DNA of 26,578 nucleotides, taken from NCBI GenBank assembly GCA_041640655.1, contig JBEPZV010000035.1, positions 1-26,578 on the forward strand. The letters run 5' to 3'. Each line of letters starts with the position of its first letter. The stretch's first letter is position 1. Positions 1 to 20,470 of this stretch are shown here, piece by piece. This stretch comes from a bacterium (GTDB lineage Bacteria > Acidobacteriota > Blastocatellia > HR10). Made by a program: the position numbers and the translations under genes. The notes under the pieces are model-generated. The model was not told where the DNA came from, did no database searches, and saw only the letters and a list, made by a program, of their open reading frames with translations.

Positions 1-214
1 AGCCGAGCGCCACATGCCCGATGACAAAGAGCGACCCCACGGTGAGGATCAGGTATCGGATCATCCGATCAATCCCGGCCCCATGTTCGGACGCCAGCGG
101 CGGCAACCACCGTCGCACGCCAAAGCCGATGCCCACAAGGGCGATAGTGAAGAGGGCAAAGGCGAAGAAGAATCCCTCGAGGGTTCTCCCCAATCGCTCG
201 CGTCCCTCAGCCAT
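1..214 (-). CDS. coxB: Cytochrome c oxidase subunit II, N-terminal part (runs off the window start; absent from the ORF track)
   Basis: Manual translation from ATG at 214: MAEGRERLGRTLEGFFFAFALFTIALVGIGFGVRRWLPPLASEHGAGIDRMIRYLILTVGSLFVIGHVALG. The W-x-P-x-x-A-S-x-H-G-x-x-I-D segment followed by a TM helix is typical of CoxII N-termini. RBS GGGAGGA lies just upstream. The CuA domain is outside the window. Confidence 0.7.
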   Translation of the reverse strand, partial: MAEGRERLGRTLEGFFFAFALFTIALVGIGFGVRRWLPPLASEHGAGIDRMIRYLILTVGSLFVIGHVALG

Positions 215-299
215 GGCTTCCTCCCGTATGCTCATGGCCCCGACCTTCCAATCGGGGAAATGACCGAGCCCAGTCTACCCCGCCTCCCAGATCGAAGGC

Positions 300-315
300 T
301 GTGACGAAAGTCACA
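300..315. promoter_or_regulatory. CRP/FNR-family binding site
   Basis: TGTGA-CGAAAG-TCACA is a perfect match to the CRP consensus TGTGA-N6-TCACA. A minus-strand -10-like TAGACT (277-272) puts the site centre at about -42, a class II geometry for coxB. Confidence 0.7.
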
Positions 316-420
316 CCGACCCCATCTCGTGCATGATCTCCTGCTTGCCCGGTTGCAAACTTCCCCGCCCATATCGTCAGCGAGTGAGACCATCGCGACC
401 TCACCCAGTGCAGAGGCAAT

Positions 421-436
421 AGCAAACGCTATGCCG
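421..436 (-). promoter_or_regulatory. Sigma54 (-24/-12)-like promoter pointing toward coxB
   Basis: The minus strand reads CGGCATAGCGTTTGCT: GG-N10-GC spacing with GGCA and TTGCT elements. Confidence 0.45.
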
Positions 437-732
437 CGAAAGCGAGGGTCTGTCGGCCGAACATCCAGAACTCCCAAGCAGACAAGAACTTCTTTCATCT
501 CGCGCATCATTTCCTGAATCCCATCCCTCTTCTCGCTCTGGGGGATAATCCCCAAAGCTGGGCGAAATCCCCACCGCGGAGTGAATCCTGACCGACCATG
601 AGTCGAACGAGCGACGAGGCGCTCGCCACAGCCCCCCCAATCCGATCGCGTCTGCCTCTTGACGGGAATCTCAATTGAGGTCTCTCTTCCGCCACCATGA
701 CGGAGGCCTGCGGTGAGCGAGAAGGCCCGATC

Positions 733-765
733 TGGGTGTAATCCCCCGATCGGTTCGGCTATACT
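733..765 (+). promoter_or_regulatory. Putative promoter of the multiheme cytochrome operon
   Basis: -10-like TATACT at 760-765. The -35 region is poor and is overlapped by the dyad TGGGTGTAATCCCC (733-746). Confidence 0.4.
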
Positions 766-850
766 TGTCCGGCTAACTCGGTCATCCAATGGACGATAGC
801 CGCAAGCGGGGCACGGGCACCGCAGGCGGCACGCCGCTTGCCTACGACGT

Positions 851-2983
851 GTGAACGAATTGATGAAGAGCCAGACAGAGCGCAGGATCGAACGACAGGA
901 AGGCGGAGGCGCGCTTGGAGTCTTCACTCTCGCCCTCATCCTCGCGCTCGGCCTTCCGACTCTGGCGCAGTCGTCGCGCCGCGCTTCGGCTCCGCGCCTC
1001 AGTTCGGCCGAATGCCTGGCGTGCCATAATGATCCGAATCTGAGCACGTCGGTGAACGGCCAGACCGTGAGCGTCCACGTGAGCGAGAGCGCGTTCAAGG
1101 CGTCCGTTCACGGAGCCTTCGACTGCGCGACGTGCCATGCGGATGTTCGAGACTATCCGCACGAGCCGCCGCCGCAGAAAGTCTCCTGCGCCACCTGCCA
1201 TCCGGATGCGGAAGAGGCGTACGCGCAGAGTCTGCACGCGAAGGCGGTGCGCGAAGGACGCGCGCGCGCGGCCAGTTGCCTGGATTGCCACGGCGACGCG
1301 CACACGATTCTCCCCTCGAGCGATCCGCGCTCGAAGACCCATCACACCCGGATTCCGCACACGTGCGGTTCCTGCCACGGCGTGCAGTTCGTCGTCGAGC
1401 CGGCGGGCATCAGCGCGCAACCGTTCTTCTCCTATCAGCAGAGCGTTCACGGGCGCGCGGTCGCGGCCGGCTCGATGCGCGCGGCCGTCTGCACCGACTG
1501 CCATCGCAGCCACGACGTGCGATCGGCGGCGGATCCGCAATCGCCCATTTTCAAGTTCAACGTGCCCGCGACCTGCGGGCAGTGCCACACCGCGATCCGC
1601 GATGAATTCCTGGAGAGCATTCACGGCCAGGCCATCCGCCGCGGGAACTGGCAAGCCCCCGTCTGCACGGATTGCCATGGCATTCACTTGATCAAGCCGC
1701 ATATTGATCCGACGTCTCCGGTCGCGCAGCAGGCGCTCGCCCGCACGACCTGCGGGCGATGTCACGAGGGCGTTCGTCTCACACAAGAGTTCGGCGTGCC
1801 GGGCGGGCGCGTGAGCACGTACCTCGATAGCTACCACGGGCGCGCATCGCAACTCGGTTCGACGGTCGTCGCCAACTGCGCCAGTTGTCACGGCGTCCAC
1901 AACATCCTGCCTTCCTCCGATCCTCGCTCAATGGTGCACAAGGCCAATCTCGCGCGCACCTGCGGGCAATGCCATCCGGGCGCCGGCGAGAACTTCGCGC
2001 GCGTGAGGGTGCATGCCGAAGTCCCCGTCTCCGAAGATCTCGGGAGCATCCTCAAACACTGGGTGCGGCGCATCTACCTCTGGCTCATCGCCATCACCAT
2101 CGGCCTGATGGCCCTCCACAACGGCGCGATCTGGCGCAGGAAAGCGCTGGCGCGACGCCGGACCGAAGAGCGCACGATTCTCCGCCTGACGCCGCAACAG
2201 CGATGGCAACATCTGCTGCTGCTCCTGAGCTTCTTCACCCTCGTGCTCACGGGCTTCGCCTTGAAATACCCGGACTCCTGGCTGGCGTGGCTGCTCGGCT
2301 CCAGCGAGAGCTTCCGCCGCATCGCCCATCGGGTGGCTGGTGCCGTCTTGCTCGGCATCGGCGCGTATCATCTCGTCTACATCATGGCGACGGCCGAGGG
2401 CCGACAGGTCTGGCGCGACATGCGACCGCGGCGCAAGGACATCGCCGATCTCATCCAGAATATGCGATACTACCTCGGTCGGAGCGCCCATCGCCCGCTC
2501 TTCGACCGCTGCAGCTACATCGAGAAGTTCGAATACTGGGCGCTTGTCTGGGGCACCCTCATCATGGGCGCGACGGGGCTCATGGTCTGGTTCAAGGCGC
2601 AGACGACGCGATGGCTGCCGGGTTGGGCCATTGATGTCGCCCTCACGATTCACTTCTACGAAGCCGTGCTGGCGACGCTGGCCATCTTCGTCTGGCATTT
2701 CTATCACGTCATCTTCGATCCGGACGTGTACCCGATGAACTGGGCCTGGCTGGATGGACGCGTCTCACTGCGCTGGTATCAGCACGAACATCCGCTCGAT
2801 TATGCGCGCCTGGTGGCTGCCGAGAGCCCCGGAGCGGCTCGGTCAGAGCGTGTGGCCGAGGACGCGGCGGCGATGGCAGCATCAGAGCGAGATCCTCGAG
2901 AGTCGGCCGAAATCCGCGCCACCGCGTCGGCCGATGGCGCCGAGGATCCCCCATCGGACCCTGCAGGAGGAGCAGTCGGATGA
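851..2983 (+). CDS. CbcL-like inner-membrane protein: periplasmic 11-heme cytochrome c fused to an FdnI/HydC-type di-heme cytochrome b
   Basis: Signal-like N-terminus (ATG 863 is an alternative start). 11 CxxCH motifs counted. C-terminal TM helices carry b-heme His ligands (RWQHLLL, IAHRVAG, TIHFYE, VWHFYH) and the YIEKFEYWALVWG motif. Confidence 0.9.
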   Translation: MNELMKSQTERRIERQEGGGALGVFTLALILALGLPTLAQSSRRASAPRLSSAECLACHNDPNLSTSVNGQTVSVHVSESAFKASVHGAFDCATCHADVRDYPHEPPPQKVSCATCHPDAEEAYAQSLHAKAVREGRARAASCLDCHGDAHTILPSSDPRSKTHHTRIPHTCGSCHGVQFVVEPAGISAQPFFSYQQSVHGRAVAAGSMRAAVCTDCHRSHDVRSAADPQSPIFKFNVPATCGQCHTAIRDEFLESIHGQAIRRGNWQAPVCTDCHGIHLIKPHIDPTSPVAQQALARTTCGRCHEGVRLTQEFGVPGGRVSTYLDSYHGRASQLGSTVVANCASCHGVHNILPSSDPRSMVHKANLARTCGQCHPGAGENFARVRVHAEVPVSEDLGSILKHWVRRIYLWLIAITIGLMALHNGAIWRRKALARRRTEERTILRLTPQQRWQHLLLLLSFFTLVLTGFALKYPDSWLAWLLGSSESFRRIAHRVAGAVLLGIGAYHLVYIMATAEGRQVWRDMRPRRKDIADLIQNMRYYLGRSAHRPLFDRCSYIEKFEYWALVWGTLIMGATGLMVWFKAQTTRWLPGWAIDVALTIHFYEAVLATLAIFVWHFYHVIFDPDVYPMNWAWLDGRVSLRWYQHEHPLDYARLVAAESPGAARSERVAEDAAAMAASERDPRESAEIRATASADGAEDPPSDPAGGAVG

Positions 2984-4434
2984 TCACACGCCTGAGCCTG
3001 TGGTTCTGGGACCTGATGCGCCTGGTGGGCCGAAATTGGATCACGGCTCTCGGAGGCGCCCTCACGACGGTCAGCGCCCTGCTCATCATCGCCCTCATGA
3101 TCCTCGGCCTGCTTGGCCTCTACGATACACCCTACGTCGGGATCATGGCCTTCCTCGTCCTGCCGGGGGTGTTCGTCCTGGGCCTGCTGCTCATCCCCTT
3201 CGGCCTCTATTGGGAGCGAAAGCGAGCGCCCCGAGATGACGCCCCGGCGAATCCGACATCCCGCCCGTTGTACCCGCGCATTGATTTCAACCGCGCATCG
3301 GTGCGCCGCACGGCCGGGATCGTGAGCGTCCTGACCGTCATCAATCTCCTCCTCATCTCCCTGACGACCTACAAGGGCGTGACCTATATGGACTCGGTCG
3401 AGTTCTGCGGCACGGTGTGCCACTCTGTGATGGAACCGGAATACACGGCCTATCTCAATTCACCCCATTCGCGCGTGAAGTGCGTCGAGTGTCATATCGG
3501 TCCCGGGGCCCCGTGGTTTGTGCGCTCGAAGCTCTCGGGCGTGGGACAGGTCTTCGCCACCGCCTTCAACACCTACTCGCGTCCGATCCCCACACCGGTT
3601 GAGAACCTGCGCCCCTCGCGCGATACGTGCGAGCAATGCCATTGGCCGGAGAAATTCACCGGGGATCGCGTCAAGGTCATCACCCGCTTCGCCGAAGATG
3701 AGGCGAACACGCCGCTCAAGACCGTCCTCCTCATGCATATCGGCGGGGGCGCGGCCGGCCATGGCGGCATTCACAGCTGGCATATTGATCCGAACAAGCA
3801 AACGCTCTATATCGCCGCGGACAAACAGCGGCAGATCATCCCCTGGGTCCAAGTGCGCGAGGCCAATGGGCGCGTGACGGAATTCGTCGCCCAGGACGCG
3901 TCGCTCACGCCCGAGCAGCTCGCTCGCGCCGAACGTCGCGTCATGGATTGCATTGACTGCCACAATCGCCCGACACACATCTTCAAACTCCCGGACCAGG
4001 CGATGGACGAAGCGCTGGCGATGGGACGGATTGATCGCACGCTCCCGTACATCAAGAAGCTGGGCGTCGAAGTCCTGCGAGCCGCTGCCGAGACCTCGGG
4101 GGACGCGGCCCAAGAGATCGCCCGCCGCGTCCGCGCCTTCTATCAGGAGAAATATCCCGACCTCCTCCGTTCCCGCCGCGAGGCCATCGAAGCCGCGATC
4201 CGCGAACTGCACGCCCTCTACCGTCGGAACGTCTTCCCTTCGATGAGGGTGACCTGGGGGACGTATCCCGATAACATCGGGCACGCGCGGTTCCCCGGCT
4301 GCTTCCGCTGTCACGACGAACAACATGTGAGCAAGGACGGGCGGACGATCAGCCAGAGCTGCGATCTCTGCCATACCATCCTGGCGGTCGAAGAGCCGAA
4401 TCCGCCGATCCTGCAGCAGCTCAATATCCGATAA
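2980..4434 (+). CDS. NapC/NirT-family multiheme quinol oxidoreductase, ImcH-like
   Basis: Three N-terminal hydrophobic helices. FCGTVCHSVM (CX3CH with a nearby Met) plus five CxxCH. ATGA overlap with the upstream gene; RBS AGGAGG. Confidence 0.85.
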   Translation: MITRLSLWFWDLMRLVGRNWITALGGALTTVSALLIIALMILGLLGLYDTPYVGIMAFLVLPGVFVLGLLLIPFGLYWERKRAPRDDAPANPTSRPLYPRIDFNRASVRRTAGIVSVLTVINLLLISLTTYKGVTYMDSVEFCGTVCHSVMEPEYTAYLNSPHSRVKCVECHIGPGAPWFVRSKLSGVGQVFATAFNTYSRPIPTPVENLRPSRDTCEQCHWPEKFTGDRVKVITRFAEDEANTPLKTVLLMHIGGGAAGHGGIHSWHIDPNKQTLYIAADKQRQIIPWVQVREANGRVTEFVAQDASLTPEQLARAERRVMDCIDCHNRPTHIFKLPDQAMDEALAMGRIDRTLPYIKKLGVEVLRAAAETSGDAAQEIARRVRAFYQEKYPDLLRSRREAIEAAIRELHALYRRNVFPSMRVTWGTYPDNIGHARFPGCFRCHDEQHVSKDGRTISQSCDLCHTILAVEEPNPPILQQLNIR

Positions 4435-4455
4435 GATTTCGCGAGCACGAGGTGG

Positions 4456-5448
4456 ATGATGAATCACCGGATGCGCACTCTCCGATCCCGCAGACATCGC
4501 TTGTTCTCCGGGCCGAGCGCCCTCGGCCTTCTCGCTTGTGGGCTCGCGCTCGGCCTGATGCTTCGCGCGGCGCCGATCACGTCCTCGCCGTCGAACCGCA
4601 TCGGCCCCCGCGCTCCATCCCAACAGCCCGAGAGCCCCTATGTGGGCTCCGAGACGTGCAAGTTGTGCCACGAGGACCTCTACGCGCACTTCGCGCGAAC
4701 GGCTCACTTTCTGACCATCAGCAGCCCGAAATACAAAGAGTCGGAGAAGGGATGCGAGGCCTGTCACGGACCGGGCCGGGAACACGTCGAGAGCGGGGGG
4801 GACGTGACGAAGATCTTCCCCTTTCGGGGGCGCCCGGTCTCGGAGCAAAACGCGCGATGCCTCGCTTGCCACGAGCGACAAGAGGAGCGCCACAACTTCC
4901 GCCAATCCGCCCACGGCCTGAATCAGGTCGCGTGCGCCGATTGTCACTCCTCGCACTCGCCGGTCGTGATCGAAGATCTGCTGGTGAAACGCACGCCCGA
5001 GCTGTGCTATCAGTGCCACGGCGAGATTCGCCAGGACTTCGCCAAACCGTTCCGGCATCGCGTCCACGAAGGGGGGATGAGTTGCACGACGTGCCACGAC
5101 GCGCACGGAGGGTTCAACGTGGCGCAAACGCGCGAGGTCCTCGGTGGGACCGACGCCATCTGCGTGAAATGCCACACGGACAAGCAAGGTCCCTTCGTCT
5201 TCGAGCACGTGCCGGTGAAGCTGGAGGGCTGCGCGAGCTGCCATGTCCCCCATGGGTCGAATAATCCCCGACTCCTCACGCGCCCCAGCGTGCACCTGCT
5301 CTGCCTCGAATGCCATACGGACACGCCGGGGATTCTCGGCACGGAGCCGCCCGCCTTCCACGATATTCGTCAACCGCGTTTTCAAAATTGCACGACGTGC
5401 CATGTGCGGATCCACGGCTCGAACGTCAACCGCTTCTTCTTCCAATAG
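4456..5448 (+). CDS. DmsE/MtrA/MtoA-family periplasmic decaheme cytochrome c
   Basis: Signal-like N-terminus, YVGSETC start of the heme domain, exactly 10 CxxCH, GPFVFEH and C-terminal CHxxIHGSN signatures. RBS GAGGTGG. Confidence 0.92.
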   Translation: MMNHRMRTLRSRRHRLFSGPSALGLLACGLALGLMLRAAPITSSPSNRIGPRAPSQQPESPYVGSETCKLCHEDLYAHFARTAHFLTISSPKYKESEKGCEACHGPGREHVESGGDVTKIFPFRGRPVSEQNARCLACHERQEERHNFRQSAHGLNQVACADCHSSHSPVVIEDLLVKRTPELCYQCHGEIRQDFAKPFRHRVHEGGMSCTTCHDAHGGFNVAQTREVLGGTDAICVKCHTDKQGPFVFEHVPVKLEGCASCHVPHGSNNPRLLTRPSVHLLCLECHTDTPGILGTEPPAFHDIRQPRFQNCTTCHVRIHGSNVNRFFFQ

Positions 5449-5456
5449 GAGGGGGT

Positions 5457-7499
5457 ATGCGCGCATTCATCCGCAACCGCTGCTTCCGCTTCGCTCCCGA
5501 TCGGTTCGCGGGGGCGATGGTCGTCCTCCTGCTGCTCCTTGGGCCGATCGCTCCCGGCCCGCGCGCTCAAGAGAACGCGGCATCGTCCGCCCAAGAGGGC
5601 CTTCGCTGGGGGCGCATGACGGCACACAGCGAAGTGGAATTCGGATGGCGACAGCTCTTCCTGGGCGGGAATCGCGATCTCTATCGCAGCCACGTCAATC
5701 TCGATGAAGGACTGCGCCTGTTTGGTCTCTCCTTCATCTCGCGGTATCCGGAGAACACGGGTCCGCTCTTCGATGTGCTCACCTACAGCATGGCGAGCTG
5801 GGGCGGCGATCCGCACAATACGACGAGCCTGCGTGTGGAGAAGCGCGGCCTCTATCGCTTCGACTTCGGCTACAGCCGGATCGTGTACTACAACTTCCTC
5901 CCGACCTTCGCCAACCCGCTTCTCAGACGCGGGGAGCTGCTCGGTCAGCATAGCGTGGACGCCGCGCGTCGCCGATCGGAATACCGCCTGACGCTCTTTC
6001 CCGATGCCACGTTCCGCATCCACATCGGATACGAGCGCAACACGCAGTTCGGGCGCGCGTTCACGACCTTCCCCATCGGCCTGGACGAATTCGTGCTGCT
6101 GGATCCCCCGCGCACGACGACGGACGAGTATCGCGTCGGTGTGGACGTCCAGCTTGGGCGCCTGCACGTCACGGTGGAGCAAGGCTTCCGCGCCTTCAAA
6201 GACGACATCCACACGACTCAGCCGGAGGGGACGATCAACCTCGGCAACAGCCGGAATCCAGCGAATCCGACCTCGGCCAATCCGCAGCAGATTCTGCTGC
6301 AGACGTTCGCCCGCGACAGCGGGATTCGCGGCCTGGTGCCGACGACGCGCATGGGCCTACAAGGACATGTGCATCGAACGCTCATGTTGAGCGGGCGCTT
6401 CGCGTATAGCGACAGCAACGTGGACGTCACGCGTCAGGAGCGAGCGATCGGCAACCTCTTCGACCTCTCCGTCCTCCGATACGTCACGGCGCAGACATCC
6501 TCCAGCCTCGCGCAGGCGTCGCGTCCCACGGCCATCGCCGATGCGAGCGTGAATTACCGCCCGCACCGCCGGATCACCATCACCAATACGGCCCAGTTTC
6601 ACCATTTCACGATCGCCGGGGATGTGCGCACGCGCACCGAACAGCAACTGGGCGCGGATTTGCGCGGAGCTCTCCCGCCCCCGCCCACGCGTCTGGTCGT
6701 GGAGTCGCTGGAAGCGCGCACCTCGGTCGACTCGTTCTTCAACCGCTTTGAGGGCGCGGTGGAACTCACCCCCCGCCTCGTCCTCCGCGCTGGCCATCGC
6801 TTCACGCATCGGCGCGTCACCCTCTGGCGTCCGGAGATGACCGAGCGCGAGGAATCGGAGCTGAACGCGCACGCCGTCCTGGGCGGACTCAGCCTCCGCT
6901 TGAGTCCCGCCTTCCGCCTCTTCTCCGAACTGGAGCGTGGCTCGAGCGATCGGGTCTTCACCCGCGTGACCCCTTCTCGCTTCACGCGTCTTCGTGCGCG
7001 CGCGCACTATCGCCCGACGCCCGCGCTCACCCTCGGCCTTCAGCTCCTGGTGACCGACTCCCGCAACCCGAACCCTCTGGTGGACAACGTGCGCCGAAAT
7101 CGCGGCCTGACGTTCACGACGCTCTGGACCCCCGGCGAACGCATCGCCCTCTCGCTCAGCTACACGCGCACGGACATCACGTCCACGATCCTCTTCCTTC
7201 ACCCGCGCCTTCGCACGATCGAGACCTCGCGCTACGTGGCCGACGATAATTTCGTGGATGGCGATCTCACGATCGCGCCCCTGCGGAACCTGCGCCTCGC
7301 CCTCGGCTACTCCCTCGTGAACGCGCAAGGGACACTGCCCCTCAACTTCCACCGGCCGCGCGGGATGATCGCCTACACCTTCCCGAAGCGCTTCACCTGG
7401 AGCGTCGGCTGGCATTGGTACGGATACAATCAGAAGGGGTCCGCCCTGGAGGATTACCGCGCGCACACTGTGACGAGCAGCCTGAAGATCGCGTTCTGA
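5457..7499 (+). CDS. MtrB/PioB-like outer-membrane beta-barrel (porin of a porin-cytochrome complex)
   Basis: Start reassigned to ATG 5457 behind RBS AGGAGGGGG, giving 680 aa. Signal peptide, many amphipathic beta-strands, C-terminal Phe beta-signal (SSLKIAF). Lies directly after the decaheme gene. Confidence 0.8.
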   Translation: MRAFIRNRCFRFAPDRFAGAMVVLLLLLGPIAPGPRAQENAASSAQEGLRWGRMTAHSEVEFGWRQLFLGGNRDLYRSHVNLDEGLRLFGLSFISRYPENTGPLFDVLTYSMASWGGDPHNTTSLRVEKRGLYRFDFGYSRIVYYNFLPTFANPLLRRGELLGQHSVDAARRRSEYRLTLFPDATFRIHIGYERNTQFGRAFTTFPIGLDEFVLLDPPRTTTDEYRVGVDVQLGRLHVTVEQGFRAFKDDIHTTQPEGTINLGNSRNPANPTSANPQQILLQTFARDSGIRGLVPTTRMGLQGHVHRTLMLSGRFAYSDSNVDVTRQERAIGNLFDLSVLRYVTAQTSSSLAQASRPTAIADASVNYRPHRRITITNTAQFHHFTIAGDVRTRTEQQLGADLRGALPPPPTRLVVESLEARTSVDSFFNRFEGAVELTPRLVLRAGHRFTHRRVTLWRPEMTEREESELNAHAVLGGLSLRLSPAFRLFSELERGSSDRVFTRVTPSRFTRLRARAHYRPTPALTLGLQLLVTDSRNPNPLVDNVRRNRGLTFTTLWTPGERIALSLSYTRTDITSTILFLHPRLRTIETSRYVADDNFVDGDLTIAPLRNLRLALGYSLVNAQGTLPLNFHRPRGMIAYTFPKRFTWSVGWHWYGYNQKGSALEDYRAHTVTSSLKIAF

Positions 7500-7821
7500 A
7501 CAGGAGCCGGATCCTTCGCGCCTGGCCGCTGTGGCGTCGAGCTGGACGAGTCCGGAGATTCGCGCGCTCGCTCAAGCCGTTTTGGCGGTCACCGCGCTCA
7601 AACGCGCGAAGGGGGAGTGCGAAGAGCGCTGAGAGTTGCTTCGGAGGCGATCAGAGCAACTCATCTCGCGAGGGGGGTACGAAAAGACGCTCCTCACGCT
7701 CACGGAATACGGGCTTGAGCTTTTGATCCCAAAGATGCCCTGTCCGAAAGGTGGGGATCTTTCCCCAAGGGCCCGGACGTCCCTTCGAGAAGGGCATCTC
7801 GGCACGTTCGGAAATCGGGGC

Positions 7822-7848
7822 TTGACATTGAAAAAAAAGTGCTAAAAA
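7822..7848 (+). promoter_or_regulatory. Sigma70-like promoter with an A8 run in the spacer
   Basis: Perfect TTGACA (7822-7827), 15 bp spacer containing A8 (7831-7838), then TGc-TAAAAA, an imperfect extended -10. Confidence 0.4.
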
Positions 7849-7879
7849 GGGGCCGATGATTTCCGTGAGGAGGCCGCGT

Positions 7880-9514
7880 ATGCGGAGTCATTGGAGCTGG
7901 CTGCTGTTCATCCTGCTTCCCCTCACTTCGCTCGGAAGGCCCGATGGGGGGATTTCTGCGGTCCACGCACCGGGGGCCCGGCGCGTCCAAAGCGAGGTGG
8001 GGGCGCGCCTGCGGCAACAATTGGAGTGGACATTGAAGCGCCGGACGTTCCAATCGGCTCGCCGGATGCTGCAGCACGCTCAAGTTCCCTTCGAACCCGA
8101 AGTTCTTTTGGAGCCCAACTGGCGGGAGGAGGTCGCACCGCGACTGTGGCTGATGCCCGAGATGCAGACGATCCGCTATGAGACCGAGCCGTTGGCGGGC
8201 GTGTACCTGGCCGACACGCTCTATTTGCCGGAGCGGGTGGAGCTGGCCGGAGAAACAATCCTGCTGGTGCGTCATCTGATCTTCGAGGGCACGCAGGCCG
8301 TGATCGAAGGGAATCATCAGATTTATCTCTTTCCGATCGAGACGATGGGGTTATTGGGAACCCCGCTGCGCAAGGCGACGGGTGAGGGCCGGACGTGGAT
8401 ACGACCGGTGAGTGTCGGAACAAGCGCGCTGCCGGTGATGCGAGGTGGGCAGATCATCATAGATACCAGCGGGCCCGGGCGAAAGGAATGGCTGGAGTGG
8501 AGACGGAGGGTAAGCGAAGGGGCGAATCGCCGCGTGGCGTGGGCTCAAGAGACGAGAGATACAAGTGGCCGCCCAGGCGCAGACGGAACCCCTGGGAACT
8601 CGGGAGAAGATGGCGGAGACGGACAACCGGGAACGAGAGGGGCTGATGGCGTCTGTGGAGCAAATGTTCATGGTGGGGATGGAGGGCGTGGTGGGAACGG
8701 CACTCCAGGGGGAGACGGCCAGCGTGGAGGAGATGGAAACCCGGGCGAAGACGCCAAGGACATTGTGCTTGATATTGCTCCAGGTACCACGGTCAGCTAC
8801 ACCTTGATCGCGCGTGGGGGCGATGGAGGGAATGGAGGCACCGGAGGAAATGGAGGTCGAGGGGGAAATGGCGGGGCGGGTGGAGATGGCGGCGATGGAG
8901 CCGATTGCCTCTGCAGTGAAGGAGGGGCCGGTAACGGGGGGCGGGGTGGTGACAACGGCTGGGGAGGAGACGGGGGCAATGGGGGGACGGGTGGCAACGG
9001 AGGAAATGGAGGCAATAGTGGAAACATCTATGTCTTCTATCCCCGCGGATATGACATCGGGAAAATTTCCGCTATAAAAAATAACGCAGGGATAGGCGGG
9101 CGCGGGGGCTACGGCGGTGCAGCCGGGCGACCGGGAATTGGTGGGGTCGGCGGAAAGGGAGGTAAAGGTGCCACCGGATTTCTCTGCCCCTCAAGTCGTG
9201 GTCGAGATGGCCAATTCGGGGATCCAGGCTCTGGTGGAGCCGGAGGAGACGGAGGTGCGGCCGGAAATCCAGGTGCTAACGGACAGAGTGGGATCGTCGC
9301 CTTCCTACTGCGTTCCGGCAGAGATGAGGACGGAGACGGGTGGACGACGGAAGAGAGGGACTGTAATGACGGGGATCCGGCGGTGAATCCGGGAGCAACT
9401 GAGGGAGGAGGCGCTTTGAACTGCGAGGAGTTTTTCTCCGGAGAGGGGGGTATGCTTCGATGGGGCGGACAACGATTGCGACGGGCTGGCAGATGGGGGG
9501 GATACCGGCTGTAG
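7880..9514 (+). CDS. Exported Gly-rich (PGRS/collagen-like) protein, N-terminal part of a frameshifted gene
   Basis: ATG 7880 behind GAGGAGG. Signal peptide MRSHWSWLLFILLPLTSLG, a globular N-domain, long G-x-x/GGxGGx repeats, then DEDGDGW..DCNDGDPAVNPGATE, the first half of a MopE-like putative metal-binding motif. The last ~20 codons are out-of-frame junk. Confidence 0.75.
   Translation: MRSHWSWLLFILLPLTSLGRPDGGISAVHAPGARRVQSEVGARLRQQLEWTLKRRTFQSARRMLQHAQVPFEPEVLLEPNWREEVAPRLWLMPEMQTIRYETEPLAGVYLADTLYLPERVELAGETILLVRHLIFEGTQAVIEGNHQIYLFPIETMGLLGTPLRKATGEGRTWIRPVSVGTSALPVMRGGQIIIDTSGPGRKEWLEWRRRVSEGANRRVAWAQETRDTSGRPGADGTPGNSGEDGGDGQPGTRGADGVCGANVHGGDGGRGGNGTPGGDGQRGGDGNPGEDAKDIVLDIAPGTTVSYTLIARGGDGGNGGTGGNGGRGGNGGAGGDGGDGADCLCSEGGAGNGGRGGDNGWGGDGGNGGTGGNGGNGGNSGNIYVFYPRGYDIGKISAIKNNAGIGGRGGYGGAAGRPGIGGVGGKGGKGATGFLCPSSRGRDGQFGDPGSGGAGGDGGAAGNPGANGQSGIVAFLLRSGRDEDGDGWTTEERDCNDGDPAVNPGATEGGGALNCEEFFSGEGGMLRWGGQRLRRAGRWGGYRL
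8563..9292 (+). repeat. Period-3 glycine-rich coding repeat (G-x-y / GGxGGxGG)
   Basis: Examples: GGDGGNGGTGGNGGRGGNGGAGGDGGDG and GRPGADGTPGNSGEDGGDGQPG. Runs are interrupted by short hydrophobic and Cys-containing linkers. Confidence 0.85.
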
Positions 9515-10052
9515 CGGCTGCGGGGGAATATCACCGATCGTCGTGGACACGCAGGGGGACGGGTTTCACCTGGTGGGGCTTGAGGCAGGCGTGCGGTTCG
9601 ATCTGCTGGGAACCGGACGTCCTCTGCGCCTGAGATGGATTCAAGGGGATGAGGCCTTCCTCGTTTGGGATCGCAACGGCAACGGGCGCGTGGACGATGG
9701 GCAGGAGATGTTCGGGAACGTGACGCGACGGCGGTCGGGAGAACGGGCGCCTAACGGATACGAGGCGCTCAAGGAATACGACGACAACCGAGACGGTCTC
9801 TTGGATGCCCGCGATGCCCTCTTTGCGCAGCTTCACCTGTGGAGGGATGGCAACGGGGATGGCGAGACGGACAGCGGAGAATTGCTTCCGCTTCAGGCGG
9901 TGGAGATCCGCGCTCTGGAGCTGACGTATCGGGAGAGTCGGCGTCGGGATCGGCATGGGAACGAGCTGAGGTACCGCGCCCTGGTGCACGGGGACCGACC
10001 GACGGTGACCCGCTTCTCTTATGACGTCCTCTTCATCTGGCGAGGCCGATGA
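9450..10052 (+). CDS. C-terminal part of the same frameshifted gene: rest of the metal-binding motif plus a Ca-binding DxDGDG/DxNxDG domain of RTX-associated type
   Basis: The frame of ORF 9543..10052 is open from 9420 and reads VCFDGADNDCDGLADGGDTGC..SPIVVDTQGDGFHL..GVRFDL..FLVWDRNGNGRVDDGQEMFG..NGYEALKEYDDNRDG..LWRDGNGDG..GELLPL. Confidence 0.75.
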   Translation, partial: VCFDGADNDCDGLADGGDTGCSGCGGISPIVVDTQGDGFHLVGLEAGVRFDLLGTGRPLRLRWIQGDEAFLVWDRNGNGRVDDGQEMFGNVTRRRSGERAPNGYEALKEYDDNRDGLLDARDALFAQLHLWRDGNGDGETDSGELLPLQAVEIRALELTYRESRRRDRHGNELRYRALVHGDRPTVTRFSYDVLFIWRGR

Positions 10053-10173
10053 ACGCAACGCGGTGTCTCTTCGCGCCTTTCGAAGAGGCTCCCAGACGCC
10101 GACAGCCGAGACGAGATATCTGCCCTCTCCCCACGCGAGGACGAGTTGGGCTTCTCAGAAGGCCAAAGGGGCG

Positions 10174-11427
10174 TTACTTCTTCTCCTCCTTCGGCTCGAT
10201 GTAGCTGCGGCGATGCTGGACTTCCAGGCGATCGTTATCGGGCTTGCCGTCGCCGTCCACATCCACCAGAACCTGAATGCGACGCCGCTTCCCCTCGCGA
10301 CGCGGATTCGTCGGCGTATAGCCGAGCGTGTATTGCGTGCGCAGCATCACGGAGATGGATTCGAGCACCGAGGGCAAGGCGCCCTGGAAGCGCACGCTGT
10401 AGAAGCGCCCGCCGGTCACCTCGGCGAAGGTCTTCAACGTGTTCTGCGCCTGCAGGAACGTCAGGCGCGATTCCGGCGGCAACCGATGTTCCAGCAGGAT
10501 ATAGGCCAATTCGCCGATGCCGATGGCGTAGATGGGGACGCCCGCGTTCTCCACGATCCGGCGCGCTTCATCGTAGTTGATCTTGCTGAACGTATCAATC
10601 CCGATGGCCACGAGCAGAATGGCCGTGCGCCCTTCGATCTGCTGCAAGCCCGTATATTCGACCCCGTCCAGCTCCCCTCCGCGGAGGACGAAGCTCAGGG
10701 CATCGAAGAGATTGCTCTCGCTGAAGGCCGGATAGTTCCGAATGAGCAGGTAGATGGCTTCGCGCAAGCGCGCCGGGCTGTCGGTGAAATCCGTCAGGAC
10801 GGCGGGTCGGATGTCGAAGGCGACGATGGCGATGTAATCCCCCGGCTTCACGAAGCGCGTCACGAAGAGCCCGGCCGGATTGATCACCTCCTCGCGGAAC
10901 CACTCGATCTGCCGGCTGTACTCCAAAAGCAGCACGAGCGTGATCGGCGATTCCTCCCCATTGAACGTGACGATCTCCTGCTTCACGCCGTCCTCCAGGA
11001 CGGTGAAGTTTTGCTTCTTCAGCCCGGTGTACACCCGCCCCGTTTTCTTGTCGAAGACGACGACCGGAACGATGACCAGATCAGCCTTGAGGCGAATCGG
11101 CTCACCTTCAACCCGTACCTCTTGCTCCCGTTGGCGTGGCGGCTTCGATTCCTGTTCCGACATCGAGGTCACGCCGGTGGACTTTTGCTCCTCGGATTTC
11201 TCCGCCGAGGGCTTCTCTTCCGCGGGTGGAGCTTGCGGCCGCTCACGTCGGGGGGGCCGTCGTCCGGCTTGCCCGCCAAAGGCCGCGCCCTCACCGGGAG
11301 GATGAAGGGGGATGCTCGCCCCAATGAGTCCGCTCACGACGATGAGCGAGAGGATGCGGGAGAGCACCTCACGCGATCGTCGGAGCTTGCGAAAGCGCGC
11401 GCCGATTTCCCGTCGTATACTCGTCAT
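10174..11427 (-). CDS. Acidobacterial-type exported VWA domain protein
   Basis: Start placed at ATG 11427 (RBS GGAGG). N-terminal hydrophobic segment, Pro/Glu linker, VxVPVVVFDKK..GLKKQNFTVLEDGVKQEI, TGG..F and LRTQYTLGYTPTN..G..R.I.V motifs. Confidence 0.85.
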   Translation of the reverse strand: MTSIRREIGARFRKLRRSREVLSRILSLIVVSGLIGASIPLHPPGEGAAFGGQAGRRPPRRERPQAPPAEEKPSAEKSEEQKSTGVTSMSEQESKPPRQREQEVRVEGEPIRLKADLVIVPVVVFDKKTGRVYTGLKKQNFTVLEDGVKQEIVTFNGEESPITLVLLLEYSRQIEWFREEVINPAGLFVTRFVKPGDYIAIVAFDIRPAVLTDFTDSPARLREAIYLLIRNYPAFSESNLFDALSFVLRGGELDGVEYTGLQQIEGRTAILLVAIGIDTFSKINYDEARRIVENAGVPIYAIGIGELAYILLEHRLPPESRLTFLQAQNTLKTFAEVTGGRFYSVRFQGALPSVLESISVMLRTQYTLGYTPTNPRREGKRRRIQVLVDVDGDGKPDNDRLEVQHRRSYIEPKEEKK

Positions 11428-11490
11428 GGGTTCCTCCGCCGCCATAATCCTACCAGCTCCCACAGGAGGCGACAAGCACCTGGAGCCTCC

Positions 11491-11520
11491 TTGACTTCCT
11501 CACTCGCTCCATGCCACTAT
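11491..11520 (+). promoter_or_regulatory. Putative sigma70 promoter for purD
   Basis: TTGACT, 18 bp spacer ending in TGc, then CACTAT. RBS GGAGGAGG precedes ATG 11564. Confidence 0.35.
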
Positions 11521-11563
11521 CGGGTGCTTCACAAAGCGGTGAGGTTGCCTGCGGAGGAGGCGG

Positions 11564-12841
11564 ATGAGAGTTCTCGTCATCGGCTCAGGGGGACGCGAGC
11601 ACGCGTTGGTGTGGGCGCTGGCGCGCAGCTCCGGCGTCACGGAGGTCATCGGCGCGCCGGGCAATGGAGGCATCACTGAGCAGGCTCGCTGCGTGCGCGC
11701 CGACGTCGGGAATCCGCGCGAGCTGGCCGACGTGGCCGAAGCGGAAGGCGCCGCCCTCACCTTCGTCGGTCCGGAATTGCCTTTGGTCAATGGCGTCGCC
11801 GATGAATTCGCCCGACGCGGACTCCGGCTCGTCGGCCCCGATGCGCGCGCCGCGCGATTGGAGGGGAGCAAAGCCTTCGCGAAAGAGTTCATGGCGCGAC
11901 ACGGCATCCCGACGGCGCGCTTCGCGATCTGCGCCTCCGCAGCCGAAGCTCGACGCCTGATCGCCTCCGGGCGCTTCGGCTTCCCCCTCGTGATCAAAGC
12001 CGATGGATTGGCGGCCGGAAAAGGCGTGAGCATCGCGCACACGCCGAGAGACGCCGAGGAGATCATCGAGCGCTTCATGGTCCAGAGAGTGCTCGGCCCG
12101 GCGGGCGAGCGCGTCGTCTTGGAGGAGTGCTTGACCGGGCGCGAATGTAGCTTCTTCGCCTTCACTGATGGGGAGTTCGTGCTCCCCCTGCCTCCGGCGC
12201 AGGATTACAAGCGCGCGCACGATGGTGATCACGGCCCGAATACGGGCGGCATGGGGGCGATCTCCGCTCCGCATCTGCTCGATGCGGCGACGCGCGAGCG
12301 CATCTTGCGAGAGATCGTCGAGCCGACCATCCGAGCGGCCGCGCGCGAAGGTTTCCCGTATCGAGGCGTCCTCTACGTGGGCCTCATGCTCACGCCAGAA
12401 GGGCCGCGCGTGCTCGAATACAACGTGCGCCTGGGGGATCCCGAAGCGCAAGCGATCCTCCCCAGATTGGAGAGCGATCTGTTGGAGATCGGCGAAGCTC
12501 TCGTGATCGGCTCGCTCTCGCGCATCCGGCCGCGGTGGAGCGCGGACGCCACCGTGTGCGTGGTCCTCGCCTCGGGCGGCTATCCGGGAAGCTATCACAC
12601 GGGCTACCCGATTCAGGGCCTCGAAGACGCGCGACGGTTGGCGGGGGTGCTGATCTTCCACGCCGGGACGACGCGCGCGCCTGATGGATCGTTCCAGACC
12701 GCCGGTGGTCGCGTCCTCAACGTCGTCGCGCGCGGTCGAACGCTCGCCGAAGCGCGCGCGCGCGCCTACCAGGCGGCCTCGCTCATCACCTTCGAACGCA
12801 TGCACTATCGGCGCGACATCGGCGCTGAGTGGAGCGGATGA
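11564..12841 (+). CDS. purD: Phosphoribosylamine--glycine ligase
   Basis: VLVIGSGGREHAL, APGNGG, VGPE.PL..G, LEGSK.FAK.FM, VIKADGLAAGKGV, QDYKR..DGD.GPNTGGMG, EYN.RLGDPE and FHAGT..GGRVL motifs. Confidence 0.98.
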   Translation: MRVLVIGSGGREHALVWALARSSGVTEVIGAPGNGGITEQARCVRADVGNPRELADVAEAEGAALTFVGPELPLVNGVADEFARRGLRLVGPDARAARLEGSKAFAKEFMARHGIPTARFAICASAAEARRLIASGRFGFPLVIKADGLAAGKGVSIAHTPRDAEEIIERFMVQRVLGPAGERVVLEECLTGRECSFFAFTDGEFVLPLPPAQDYKRAHDGDHGPNTGGMGAISAPHLLDAATRERILREIVEPTIRAAAREGFPYRGVLYVGLMLTPEGPRVLEYNVRLGDPEAQAILPRLESDLLEIGEALVIGSLSRIRPRWSADATVCVVLASGGYPGSYHTGYPIQGLEDARRLAGVLIFHAGTTRAPDGSFQTAGGRVLNVVARGRTLAEARARAYQAASLITFERMHYRRDIGAEWSG

Positions 12842-12851
12842 GGACTGACGA

Positions 12852-12875
12852 CGAGCGCGAAGACCGAAGCGCTCG
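12852..12875. terminator. Possible hairpin terminator between convergent purD and the serine hydrolase
   Basis: CGAGCGC/GCGCTCG stem with a 10-nt loop; only a weak U-tract. Confidence 0.25.
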
Positions 12876-12880
12876 CCTCT

Positions 12881-13837
12881 TCACCGGCTCGCGGACCTTG
12901 GTTCGGAACGCCGTCGCATCGCGTGTTCGGAGATGAGGCGCGAGATCTCGGCGATGAGCCGCTGCGCGTCGCGCTCCTCGGCAATCCCGCGCGTGAGGAC
13001 GACGAGCACATAAGGCGGCCCGACGGGGGGATAGATAATCCCCGCATCGTGCGCGATTCGGGTGATCGCCCCCGTCTTATGCGCCACGCGCACGCCGGGG
13101 GGCAAGCCAGCCGGGATCCCCTCGTTGAACTCCTGATCGAGCAGCAGGCGCACCATCTCCGCGCAGCTCTCCGGCGAGATGGCGCGTCCTTCGGCGAGCC
13201 GTCGAAACAGCAGCAGCAACGCGCGCGCCGTCGTCGTATTATTGAGCCCGCGCTCGAACGCCCGGCGATCCTCCACGCCTCGGAGGACGCGCATGCCCTC
13301 GATGCCCATCTCCCGCATCAACTGCTGCACGCGCGCGGCCGTGACGCGCTCGATGAGGAGATTCGTCGCCAGGTTACTGCTGCGCGTGATCATGGCGCGC
13401 ACCAGCTCGCGAATCGTCACCGCCTCCCCGATCTTCTCGTAGAGCGCGGGATCGGAATCGCTCTCCGGCGCGAGGGAGAACGAACTGCCATCGGCGAGAC
13501 TCCGAAATTCGTTCACCACCACGAGACGATCCTCCAGGGAGAGTCGCCCCTCATGCGCCTGCCGGAAGACCTCCAGCATCACCGCCACCTTCATCGTACT
13601 CGCCGCATGGAACGGCTCATCCGCCCGCAGGAGCAACTCCTCGCCGGTCGCCAGATCGGCATACGCCACAGCGACGGCCTCTGCGCCACTGGCGGCGATG
13701 GCGCGTTCAATGCGCGCCTTCACCCCCGAGAGGTCTGAAGCGATCGCAGGCGAGACGATGGCCAGTAGGAAGATGAAGATTCGCGCGCCATCCCGAACTC
13801 GAGTGCGGTGACCGGTTCGACCAAGCGTGTTCGCCAT
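12881..13837 (-). CDS. Exported serine hydrolase of the class A beta-lactamase-like family
   Basis: SxxK (ASTMK), SxN (SSNLATN) and KTG (HKTG) motifs; signal peptide. Start moved to ATG 13837 because a strong promoter lies at 13869-13897. Confidence 0.88.
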   Translation of the reverse strand: MANTLGRTGHRTRVRDGARIFIFLLAIVSPAIASDLSGVKARIERAIAASGAEAVAVAYADLATGEELLLRADEPFHAASTMKVAVMLEVFRQAHEGRLSLEDRLVVVNEFRSLADGSSFSLAPESDSDPALYEKIGEAVTIRELVRAMITRSSNLATNLLIERVTAARVQQLMREMGIEGMRVLRGVEDRRAFERGLNNTTTARALLLLFRRLAEGRAISPESCAEMVRLLLDQEFNEGIPAGLPPGVRVAHKTGAITRIAHDAGIIYPPVGPPYVLVVLTRGIAEERDAQRLIAEISRLISEHAMRRRSEPRSASR

Positions 13838-13868
13838 ACCGAACGCTCCGTCTCCGTTCGCTCCGCAG

Positions 13869-13897
13869 AGCGTATCAACCTTCGGAGAGATTGTCAA
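13869..13897 (-). promoter_or_regulatory. Sigma70 promoter for the serine hydrolase
   Basis: Minus strand: TTGACA, 17 bp spacer ending in TGa, then TACGCT. Confidence 0.7.
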
Positions 13898-13955
13898 TGC
13901 CCCCCCCTTCCGCGGGGAGGCGCGCGAATTCCGCATAGTCCCAGCCTCCACCTTG

Positions 13956-13964
13956 TGATAAACT
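13956..13964 (+). promoter_or_regulatory. Extended -10 element upstream of the pspA operon
   Basis: TGaTAAACT, about 90 bp upstream of the pspA ATG; no clear -35. Confidence 0.35.
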
Positions 13965-14051
13965 ATGGCACGGAATCCGTCGTATAAGAACACGTGACCG
14001 AGGGGCTCGCGCGTCAGATCCCCTCGGCATTTGAGAGGAGGCCTGCGGACG

Positions 14052-14834
14052 ATGTGGCAACGACTCAAGCGGCTCTTACGAGCCATCTTCGGGGGGCTCA
14101 TCGAGCGCGCGGAGGACCCGGAGCTGATCCTGCAACAGGTCATCCGCGACATGCGCGACAAGCTCCCCCAGATGAACGAGAATGTCGCTCAGGTCATGGC
14201 CACGCAGAAGCTTCTGGAGAAAGAGGTCGCGACCCTGGAGCGAGAGATCACCGAATTCGACGCCAAGATTCGCGCGGCCATCAAGCAGGGACGGGATGAT
14301 CTCGCCACGGCTTTCATCAGCGCCTTGCAGGAGAAACAGGTCGCCCTGGAGCGCTCCCGCCAGCAATTGGAGGCGGCTCGCCGGGCCTCGGAACAAGCGA
14401 TTCGCTTCCGCGACAACTACATCTTGCAGCTGAAGAAGCGGCAGCAAGAGGCCATGCAACTCATCGCCGAACACCGTCGGGCCCGCATTCAGGAGCAATT
14501 GGCGCAGACGATGGCCAGCTTCCAACTCGGCGACGAGGCCGGGACGTTCGAGGAGATGCGAGAGAAAGTCGCGCGCCGCGTCGCGGCGGCCGAGGCGAAG
14601 ATGGAGCTGGCGTCCACGGGCGTCGAGAGTCAGATCGCGGAGATCGAGAAGGAGGCCCTCTCGATGCAGGTCCAGGATATGCTGCTCGCCTACAAGCGAC
14701 AGATGGGGCTGCTGCCGGAGACGCCAGCGGCGACGCTCCCAGCCGGAGAGACGACTGCCCTGCCGGAGAAGACGCTCGGACCGGCCGAAGAAGAACCCGC
14801 GCGTCCGGAACCGACGAGGGCGAGTGAGGGATGA
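14052..14834 (+). CDS. pspA: PspA/IM30 (Vipp1/ESCRT-III superfamily) protein with a Pro-rich C-terminal tail
   Basis: ATG 14052 behind GAGGAGG. Amphipathic N-helix MWQRLKRLLRAIFGGLIERAEDPE, then LQQ.IRDM, AIKQGRDDLA, FEEMREKV and long coiled coils. Confidence 0.9.
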   Translation: MWQRLKRLLRAIFGGLIERAEDPELILQQVIRDMRDKLPQMNENVAQVMATQKLLEKEVATLEREITEFDAKIRAAIKQGRDDLATAFISALQEKQVALERSRQQLEAARRASEQAIRFRDNYILQLKKRQQEAMQLIAEHRRARIQEQLAQTMASFQLGDEAGTFEEMREKVARRVAAAEAKMELASTGVESQIAEIEKEALSMQVQDMLLAYKRQMGLLPETPAATLPAGETTALPEKTLGPAEEEPARPEPTRASEG

Positions 14835-14924
14835 AGCACGAACGCCGTCGCGCGAGGAATCAACCGGAGAGCCGAGGGCTCTCCGCACTCGAAGACAGCC
14901 CTCACGCTGTGTGAGGATGCGATT

Positions 14925-15743: not shown

Positions 15744-15747
15744 GTCC

Positions 15748-17463: not shown

Positions 17464-17489
17464 CCGGTCCACCGCGCACCCACGCGGGA

Positions 17490-17518
17490 TTGCCCGCGCG
17501 AGCCCCTCGGTCTACAAT
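17490..17518 (+). promoter_or_regulatory. Sigma70 promoter for ggt
   Basis: TTGCCC-17 bp-TACAAT, upstream of RBS GGAGGG and ATG 17541. Confidence 0.65.
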
Positions 17519-17540
17519 CTGCGATGACCGGAGGGAACCG

Positions 17541-19283: not shown

Positions 19284-19291
19284 TCTCTTGC

Positions 19292-19315
19292 AGGGGCGAC
19301 GCCGACATCGCCCCT
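19292..19315. terminator. Hairpin between convergent ggt and the ABC permease
   Basis: AGGGGCGA/TCGCCCCT 8-bp stem; no clear U-tract. Confidence 0.35.
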
Positions 19316-20465: not shown

Positions 20466-20470
20466 CACCG

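Follow-up and report, generated by a model that had tools for sequence, protein, structure and literature searches.

Nesting of an accessory cytochrome c oxidase operon in an Mtr-type cluster of a Blastocatellia genus, with a putative common sigma-54 control region

The window analyzed here is a stretch of 26,578 nucleotides (nt) that makes up an entire contig (C35; JBEPZV010000035.1) of an acidobacterial genome (G000; GenBank assembly GCA_041640655.1; Blastocatellia, HR10), and its left edge is the contig end. At this edge, the minus strand carries the 5' part of coxB, the gene for subunit II of a cytochrome c oxidase. Head to head with it lie four plus-strand genes, g1 to g4, encoding a predicted electron conduit. 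The spacer between the coxB start codon (ATG 214) and the conserved g1 start codon (ATG 863) measures 648 bp. The features of this part of the window are listed below; conservation refers to an alignment of six members of the genus.

2..214, minus strand: coxB (A-type CuA cytochrome c oxidase, subunit II), the 5'-most 71 codons counted from the conserved ATG 214; truncated by the contig end
219..225, minus strand: Shine-Dalgarno sequence GGGAGGA for ATG 214, found by sequence inspection; the purine-rich block and the start codon are kept in 6/6
272..277, minus strand: -10-like hexamer TAGACT; TAnnnT kept in 4/6 (TAGATG in G004, different in G006)
300..315, no strand assigned: CRP/FNR-type palindrome TGTGACGAAAGTCACA; half-sites invariant and inner spacer variable in 5/6, absent in G006
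421..436, minus strand: putative sigma-54-type -24/-12 promoter CGGCATAGCGTTTGCT facing coxB, CGGCAT-N5-TTGCT; GG-N10-GC and TTGCT in 6/6
539..554, no strand assigned: enhancer-like site 1, TGGGGGATAATCCCCA; 6/6, 11 of 16 columns invariant
558..573, no strand assigned: enhancer-like site 2, CTGGGCGAAATCCCCA; 6/6, 9 of 16 columns invariant
733..748, no strand assigned: enhancer-like site 3, TGGGTGTAATCCCCCG; 6/6, 12 of 16 columns invariant
758..769, no strand assigned: conserved box GCTATACTTGTC between site 3 and the plus-strand promoter; near-identical in 5/6
827..842, plus strand: putative sigma-54-type -24/-12 promoter CGGCACGCCGCTTGCC facing the cytochrome operon, CGGCAC-N5-TTGCC; 6/6, 10 of 16 columns invariant
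863..2983, plus strand: g1, 11-haem c domain fused to an FdnI/HydC-like cytochrome b; CbcL/MtrH/MtoC-like
2980..4434, plus strand: g2, ImcH-like architecture with a NapC/NirT-NrfH-like multihaem domain
4456..5448, plus strand: g3, periplasmic decahaem cytochrome of the MtrA/DmsE family, 330 amino acids (aa)
5457..7499, plus strand: g4, large outer-membrane beta-barrel with a predicted MtrB-like fold

The open frame on the minus strand begins at ATG 235 and runs off the left end after 78 aa (P0001). ATG 214 is the start codon kept in all six same-genus sequences; the upstream ATG 235 is not kept. By itself, the 78-aa fragment has no Pfam match, even at E ≤ 10, and it was therefore identified through its orthologues. 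When 40 relatives and the window's own genome were searched in six frames (E ≤ 0.01), the fragment matched in 13 of the 41 genomes, with full-length coxB frames in G002 (94% identity), G001 (80%), G003 (77%), G006 (73%), and G007, which belongs to a sister genus (52%). All five full-length orthologues (276 to 289 aa) contain the COX2 domain (PF00116; 47 to 51 bits against a cut-off of 22), which lies outside the window. The N-terminal two-helix domain (PF02790), part of which falls within the window, is found in four of the five at E ≤ 0.001 (residues ~36 to 124), scoring above the 22.8-bit cut-off in G003 (25.3) and G007 (25.8) and below it in G001 (21.7) and G006 (19.8).

An exact-word scan of metagenome contigs returned a single locus, L037, which is 96.4% identical to positions 1 to 8183 of the window. 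The CoxII of L037, a complete CuA protein of 285 aa, differs from the 78-residue P0001 at a single position; against TIGR02866 it scores 136 bits (E 1.1e-39), under the equivalog cut-off of 147.7. The CuA ligands HSFF...CAELCGFGHFQM (H...C-A-E-L-C-G-F-G-H-F-Q-M) are present in this protein and in all five full-length orthologues. We take the CuA ligand pattern to be H, C-x-E-x-C-x3-H-x2-M. The sequence-only reading had seen a CoxII-like N terminus in the frame from ATG 214, and the orthologues, with their PF00116 domains and CuA ligands, confirm it. At the level of sequence comparison, the truncated frame is confirmed as coxB of a genuine O2-reducing cytochrome c oxidase.

The rest of coxB and the coxA gene were not found in the assembly of the window's own genome, which contains only paralogues of the two (48/59% identity on contig C2, 44/43% on C41). 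Four public DNA runs have contigs that span the start of the window and extend 590 to 1681 nt past position 1; therefore, the break is an assembly break. On L037, coxB is followed by coxA (TIGR02891, E 4e-184), two coxC-like genes, a subunit IV gene (PF03626), and a gene for a small membrane protein; the CoxI protein has the GHPEVY motif. In G002, the genes downstream of coxB encode a subunit I of 590 aa, which matches PF00115 at 476.7 bits, and two subunit III-like proteins (PF00510). A CuA motif and coxA and coxC genes further to the left, which the sequence-only reading had looked to, are thus present on the conspecific contig L037 and in four same-genus genomes.

Past the cox operon, on the opposite strand and convergent with it, L037 encodes a 122-aa monohaem class I cytochrome c (PF00034) and then a 670-aa decahaem cytochrome. 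The latter, found outside the window in L037 and G002, scores 505.8 bits against the OmcA/MtrC model TIGR03507 (cut-off 209.3), contains PF22113, and matches MtrF (3PMQ) at E 5e-34. The monohaem cytochrome resembles c552-type proteins, and no entry named MtoD is among the 14 PDB sequences that it matches at E ≤ 0.01; a monohaem cytochrome c is also found in the conduit clusters of G008, G014, and G020. The mtrC-cox adjacency is present in L014, L015, L016, L017, and L037.

On the conduit side, g1 encodes 11 CXXCH motifs in residues 51 to 371 and a PF01292 domain (46 bits, cut-off 30.1) in residues 448 to 623, with predicted transmembrane (TM) segments; it has the CbcL/MtrH/MtoC layout as defined in the available text of PMC6295460, to which it is likened by architecture alone. 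The g2 product contains three N-terminal TM segments, a PF03264 domain (39.1 bits, cut-off 24.1), five CXXCH motifs, and one CX3CH motif. This is the layout of the ImcH family (three TM segments, a NapC/NirT-type domain, and 6 to 10 haem motifs), and this likeness, too, is one of architecture. The g3 product has 10 CXXCH motifs, scores 250.3 bits against TIGR03508 (cut-off 192.2), and matches chain A of 6r2q (E 8.5e-32) over residues 63 to 323.

The start of g4 was reset behind its overlap with g3, and the protein ends in ...KIAF. It has no Pfam or NCBIfam match, hence no MtrB/PioB sequence family, and every one of its 22 homologues is unnamed or hypothetical. An AlphaFold2 model built from the 22-sequence alignment (predicted local distance difference test score, 84.4) is all-beta and forms one large barrel. 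The top Foldseek match of the model is MtrB (6r2q_B; E 1.4e-14, TM-scores 0.66/0.68), followed by TonB-dependent receptors at ~0.38, so that an MtrB-fold barrel is the best match for g4. The proposal that the plus-strand operon encodes an outer-membrane electron conduit is supported by the MtrA-family decahaem g3 and the modeled barrel g4; together with the MtrC-like cytochrome, these two would form a predicted electron path across the outer membrane.

The order of the cluster in this thermophilic hot-spring genus is MtrC/OmcA decahaem, monohaem cytochrome c, reversed cox operon, control region, CbcL-like, ImcH-like, MtrA-like, and MtrB-like genes. The gene identities and this nesting show an accessory A1-type (aa3-like) oxidase operon, coxB-coxA-coxC-coxC'-coxIV, reversed inside an Mtr-type extracellular-electron-transfer cluster. 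Judged by its sequences, the genus holds a full MtrCAB-like set and two candidate quinol dehydrogenases.

Against a spacer background in which 70 of 514 alignment columns are invariant (14%), five motifs are 50 to 75% invariant. The strict pattern GG[CT]A[CT]-N5-TTGC occurs 65 times in the 3.1-Mb genome; ~0.013 copies would be expected in the spacer, and two are found there, each in the right orientation to serve as a sigma-54 promoter for one of the operons. The three enhancer-like sites between them share the core GGG-N3-AATCCCC. This 13-nt core is found 27 times genome-wide (~12.5 expected), and 3 of the 27 copies lie within positions 541 to 746 of the window. These candidate enhancers are located 85 to 290 nt upstream of the putative sigma-54 promoters, and the cox-facing promoter lies 103 to 137 nt from sites 1 and 2, a typical activator distance. 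An equivalent promoter, TGGCACGAAATTTGCA, is found directly before the g1 orthologue in G007, and the -12 element stands ~18 to 22 nt before the conserved g1 ATG in both genera (window 827 to 865; L029, on contig C6 of G007, 6998 to 7032). The genome encodes rpoN and at least 13 Sigma54_activat proteins. The common control region of about 640 bp that had been proposed for the two operons is thus borne out as a 648-bp spacer with apparently divergent sigma-54 promoters around common enhancer-like sites, and the spacer looks like one control region for both.

The CRP/FNR-type site is a perfect palindrome of the TGTGA-N6-TCACA type, of which the genome has two copies (~1.1 expected); a Crp-family protein is encoded at C15:20594-21301. 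If the hexamer TAGACT serves as a -10 element, it would set the center of the palindrome at ~-42.5. The box GCTATACTTGTC could be a site for a bending protein or a second regulator. Positions 1 to 1000 of the window contain no consensus sigma-70 promoter, and an Rfam search of positions 1 to 1200 returned no family at E ≤ 1. Three small open reading frames (ORFs) in the spacer (329-517, 401-640, and 507-698) were rejected, as they are not kept beyond the closest relative and their frames break. Upstream of the housekeeping coxB paralogue (C2:196480-196581) lies a near-consensus sigma-70 promoter, TTGACA-N18-TATATA, and neither sigma-54 nor enhancer motifs are found there.

The perfect palindrome TGGGG-N6-CCCCA was considered as a genome-wide marker of the regulon and rejected for lack of overall enrichment; only its position relative to sigma-54 promoters is nonrandom. 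Three of its six copies are located 97 to 281 nt upstream of sigma-54-like promoters, two of these three between divergent promoter pairs (in the window and on contig C59). Ten of 259 loosened sigma-54 patterns have this palindrome upstream (2.5 expected), and three have it on the control side. The second bidirectional pair (C59:6199-6466) surrounds a perfect TGGGGCTTTTGCCCCA, with the same layout as in the window. A sigma-54-like promoter and an enhancer-like site also precede genes for a 5-haem cytochrome, a Rieske protein, a cytochrome b, and a 9-haem cytochrome on contig C77 (1919-7042; L039), which looks like a bc-type complex of the same putative regulon.

In the genomes and loci compared, this arrangement is specific to the genus. 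An orthologous oxidase (CoxI identity ≥75%) is encoded in 6 of the 40 relatives (G001, G002, G003, G006, G007, and G009). In G007 and G009, the cox operon lies elsewhere, and no mtrC or conduit genes are found on the same contigs; in G007, it is preceded by a sigma-54 promoter of its own and by a different activator gene. The conduit operon of G007 has a perfect sigma-54 promoter directly before g1, and its divergent partner is an unrelated 153-aa gene. The latter (L029, 5763-6224, minus strand) has a sigma-54 promoter of its own, CGGCACATAAATTGCA; its product contains cysteine and belongs to no known family, and a 60% homologue is encoded in the window's own genome at C94:4413-4790. In G004, a same-genus genome, the cox operon has been deleted and the conduit and control region have been kept. 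Only coxB residues 2 to 56 are left there, in an 85-aa frame beside the intact control region (L019, on contig C57, ~9870-10035), and the genes for an MtrC-like and a monohaem cytochrome now abut the conduit operon.

A phylum-wide scan covered the best 80 of at least 598 loci with g1 homologues. In 66 of these loci, g2 stands next to g1; within the flanks, g3 was found in 18, g4 in 11, an mtrC-like gene in 3, and cox in 1, and the one locus with cox within 10 kb of a conduit gene is a same-genus contig. Record titles place the CbcL-like/ImcH-like pair widely in Acidobacteriota, including Terriglobales, Acidobacteriaceae, Sulfotelmatobacter, and Thermoanaerobaculia. The divergent arrangement proved not to be conserved across Acidobacteriota: cox lies within 10 kb in 1 of the 80 loci and adjoins the conduit in no other genus among the 40 relatives. 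Given this count and the 2 of 76 phylum-wide loci with a sigma-54 motif upstream of g1, the oxidase-conduit coupling, as judged from these genomes, is a young, genus-level feature.

The best candidate for the activator is a GAF-PAS kinase/REC-AAA+-HTH pair on contig C15, for which the evidence is suggestive only. In G008, the g1 orthologue is immediately preceded by a gene for a REC-AAA+-HTH activator, next to which is a divergently oriented GAF-PAS kinase gene. The 80%-identical orthologue of this activator in the window's own genome (C15:15381-16808) stands beside a GAF-PAS-HisKA kinase, and in G008, G013, G025, and G033, homologues of the activator are encoded no more than 12 kb from conduit genes. 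The plus-strand frame at C15:13336-15408 was rejected as the sensor kinase, as it belongs to no family and the minus strand encodes the real kinase (13441-15249). Because of that orientation, autoregulation of the activator operon from a promoter at C15:13308 was dropped as well.

In a textbook case of NtrC-type activation, divergent sigma-54 promoters share one enhancer. We propose that a common sigma-54 enhancer serves to co-activate the oxidase and the conduit as parallel electron sinks at the oxic-anoxic boundary, with an extra CRP-type input for coxB; the probability of this reading is roughly 45%, which makes it a tentative one. Both operons would start from the sigma-54 promoters at 421-436 (minus strand) and 827-842 (plus strand) that flank the three common enhancer sites, and because they flank common sites, one NtrC-type activator would turn on both operons at once. 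The CRP/FNR-type site, at ~-42.5 of a second, proximal promoter, may provide the additional input for coxB alone. Quinol electrons might then be split between two co-induced sinks at the oxic-anoxic interface. The outward route would lead from the CbcL/ImcH-like proteins to MtrA in its barrel, to MtrC, and on to Fe(III), Mn(IV), or humics; the second would lead from a c-type cytochrome to the oxidase and O2. The conduit would not feed the oxidase.

Outward metal reduction parallel to O2 respiration is the preferred reading of the predicted proteins. It is favored by the presence of the MtrC/OmcA family, by the presence of an ImcH-like protein, homologues of which are reported from Fe(III) reducers only (as far as the available text of PMC6295460 goes), and by G004, which lost the oxidase and kept the conduit. 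The widespread g1-g2 pair (66 of the 80 loci) was also counted for the outward direction.

Several observations weigh against co-activation with outward flow. The plus-strand promoter implies a leader of ~6 to 10 nt (about 10 in the window) with no Shine-Dalgarno sequence. At -24, the cox-facing promoter is off consensus (GGCAT/GGAAT/GGGAT), and transcripts started from it would have a ~195-nt leader with the CRP-type site inside. Over the whole genome, the palindrome TGGGG-N6-CCCCA shows no enrichment (6 copies, ~10.9 expected). Among the phylum-wide loci with enough upstream DNA, the two sigma-54 motifs upstream of g1 comprise one in the same genus and a weak one at -386, so that sigma-54 control is lineage-specific. 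At the G008 locus, a loose regular expression found no enhancer-like site, and no sigma-54 promoter separates the activator gene from g1, which it adjoins. Among the 40 relatives, cox stands head to head with the conduit operon only in four same-genus genomes; with the loss of cox in G004, this makes the coupling dispensable. Finally, the sequence fixes no direction of electron flow.

Electron uptake was one of two outcomes foreseen by the sequence-only reading. Electrons from Fe(II), minerals, or humics would pass through MtrC, MtrA in its barrel, and the monohaem cytochrome c to a co-induced aa3 oxidase, with the CbcL-like protein acting as a quinone reductase for reverse flow. The nesting of the oxidase operon and the apparently common enhancer are consistent with this, as is the class I monohaem cytochrome between mtrC and cox, which recalls the role proposed for MtoD in the available part of PMC4412085. 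CbcL/MtoC-family proteins also occur in Fe(II) oxidizers (PMC6295460, in its accessible part), and Shewanella is able to pass cathode electrons to O2 (PMC5829830, likewise). Nevertheless, uptake is unlikely: the cluster encodes an MtrC/OmcA cytochrome and an ImcH-like protein of the kind that the accessible text of PMC6295460 reports from reducers only, the monohaem cytochrome is c552-like with no MtoD among its PDB matches, G004 keeps the conduit without this oxidase, and cox adjacency is absent in 79 of the 80 phylum-wide loci. The fuller proposition that an aa3-type oxidase is wired into the conduit's sigma-54 enhancer for Mtr-based aerobic uptake of electrons from Fe(II), reduced minerals, or humics under the control of a cytoplasmic GAF-PAS redox sensor appears rather improbable.

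The neighborhood might instead be incidental, a recent genus-specific rearrangement having placed an accessory oxidase with its own sigma-54 promoter beside the conduit, with no coupling between them. The separate cox operons of G007 and G009, the former with a separate sigma-54 promoter and another activator, the unrelated 153-aa divergent partner of the G007 conduit, the single cox-bearing locus among the 80, and the deletion in G004 all agree with such an origin. Against it stand the activator-like spacing (103 to 137 nt) of the cox-facing promoter from sites 1 and 2 and the retention of the elements across six diverged genomes in a spacer whose remainder is 14% invariant. An incidental neighborhood is about as unlikely as electron uptake.

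Least probable is a reciprocal switch, in which two regulators acting in the spacer would make O2 respiration and extracellular reduction mutually exclusive, for example with a CRP/FNR-type protein driving the proximal coxB promoter and blocking sigma-54 read-through and the activator driving the conduit when acceptors are scarce: the palindrome (5/6) and its -10-like element at class II distance, on the cox side only and inside the sigma-54 leader, the Crp-family regulator encoded on C15, and G006, which lacks the palindrome and keeps all else, so that the inputs are separable, speak for it, but the palindrome is not enriched (2 copies against 1.1 expected) and both sigma-54 promoters flank the same sites, predicting common activation. 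The common sigma-54 region thus appears to favor co-induction over a purely reciprocal switch.

Elsewhere in the window, positions 7752 to 7855 contain a perfect palindrome, TGGGGATCTTTCCCCA, and a sigma-70-like TTGACA...TAAAAA upstream of a gene (7856-9514) for a 552-aa secreted glycine-rich protein of no family, whose sole match is a subthreshold MopE-like metal motif near the C terminus. Long ORFs with no Pfam family occupy both strands at 10021-11679 (plus) and 10174-11475 (minus); the product of the former is arginine-rich and looks noncoding. Positions 11564 to 26578 are ordinary, with purD and genes for a class A beta-lactamase-family protein, PspA/IM30, an AAA ATPase, a gamma-glutamyltranspeptidase, ABC-2 permease and ATPase components, an HlyD-family protein, and an ABC exporter.

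Among known systems, MtrCAB of Shewanella (PDB 6R2Q) resembles the cluster in the MtrA-family g3, the MtrB-fold g4, and the OmcA/MtrC decahaem nearby in the genus. It differs in that g4 lies outside the MtrB/PioB sequence families, a reversed oxidase operon separates mtrC from the mtrAB-like genes, the inner-membrane partners are CbcL-like and ImcH-like proteins rather than CymA, and sigma-54 control is predicted here. The textbook divergent sigma-54 pair has the same two outward -24/-12 promoters and common sites, and rpoN and many activators are encoded in this genome; the genes so arranged here are an oxidase and an extracellular electron conduit.

As in g1, a HydC/FdnI-like cytochrome b follows the multihaem c domain of Geobacter CbcL, and Geobacter ImcH shares with g2 three TM helices and a NapC/NirT-type multihaem domain, in both cases compared by layout alone with the available text of PMC6295460. 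The haem counts given there differ from those found here (11 in g1 against 9 in CbcL; 6 motifs in g2 against 7 in ImcH). The Geobacter cbcBA operon requires sigma-54 and the regulator BccR, and the -24/-12 promoter and the REC-AAA+-HTH activator candidate found here recall it (10.1101/2021.04.15.440034, accessible part). By contrast, Geobacter imcH and cbcL are described as constitutive, not sigma-54 dependent, in the portions available of PMC6295460 and 10.1101/2021.04.15.440034, and these accounts place no oxidase in a common control region with cbcL, imcH, or cbcBA, unlike the arrangement seen here.

Like this cluster, the MtoAB/MtoD/CymA system of Sideroxydans and PioAB combine a decahaem cytochrome with a porin, include a class I cytochrome c with one haem, and are linked to an O2 reductase (PMC4412085, available text). 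They differ from it in that the present cluster has an MtrC/OmcA outer cytochrome, an ImcH-like protein, and a c552-like monohaem cytochrome with no MtoD match. We know of no MtrC-type outer cytochrome in Mto or Pio clusters. The analogy with MtoAB/PioAB drawn earlier is weakened by the MtrC/OmcA-family cytochrome and the ImcH-like protein, which are both linked with metal reducers (PMC6295460).

In GAL08 hot-spring Acidobacteria, an mtrC homologue adjoins a cytochrome c oxidase cluster and mtrAB are stated to be absent (PMC8787282, in its accessible part). The present cluster is likened to GAL08 by the arrangement alone, not by clade membership, and differs in the MtrA-family decahaem and the MtrB-fold barrel across the cox operon; a common sigma-54 control region is not mentioned in the accessible text. 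The parts are therefore known, namely, the A-type oxidase, MtrCAB, CbcL/ImcH-like proteins, and sigma-54 enhancers, and the mtrC-cox adjacency is already published (PMC8787282). An MtrA/MtrB-like pair with CbcL/ImcH-like genes across the oxidase was not found in the literature available, where the supplementary tables of PMC8787282 may list the genes, and neither was a conserved bidirectional sigma-54 region between an oxidase and a conduit.

Should one enhancer indeed co-activate the two operons, the locus would be a compact, sequence-defined case for the coordination of O2 respiration with electron exchange across the outer membrane. Such coordination matters for iron cycling in soils and hot springs, habitats in which the abundant Acidobacteriota are for the most part uncultured. 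The locus may also correct a published inventory, in that hot-spring Acidobacteria regarded as "mtrC-only" may carry, on the far side of the oxidase operon, a complete MtrA/MtrB-like pair and two quinol dehydrogenase candidates.

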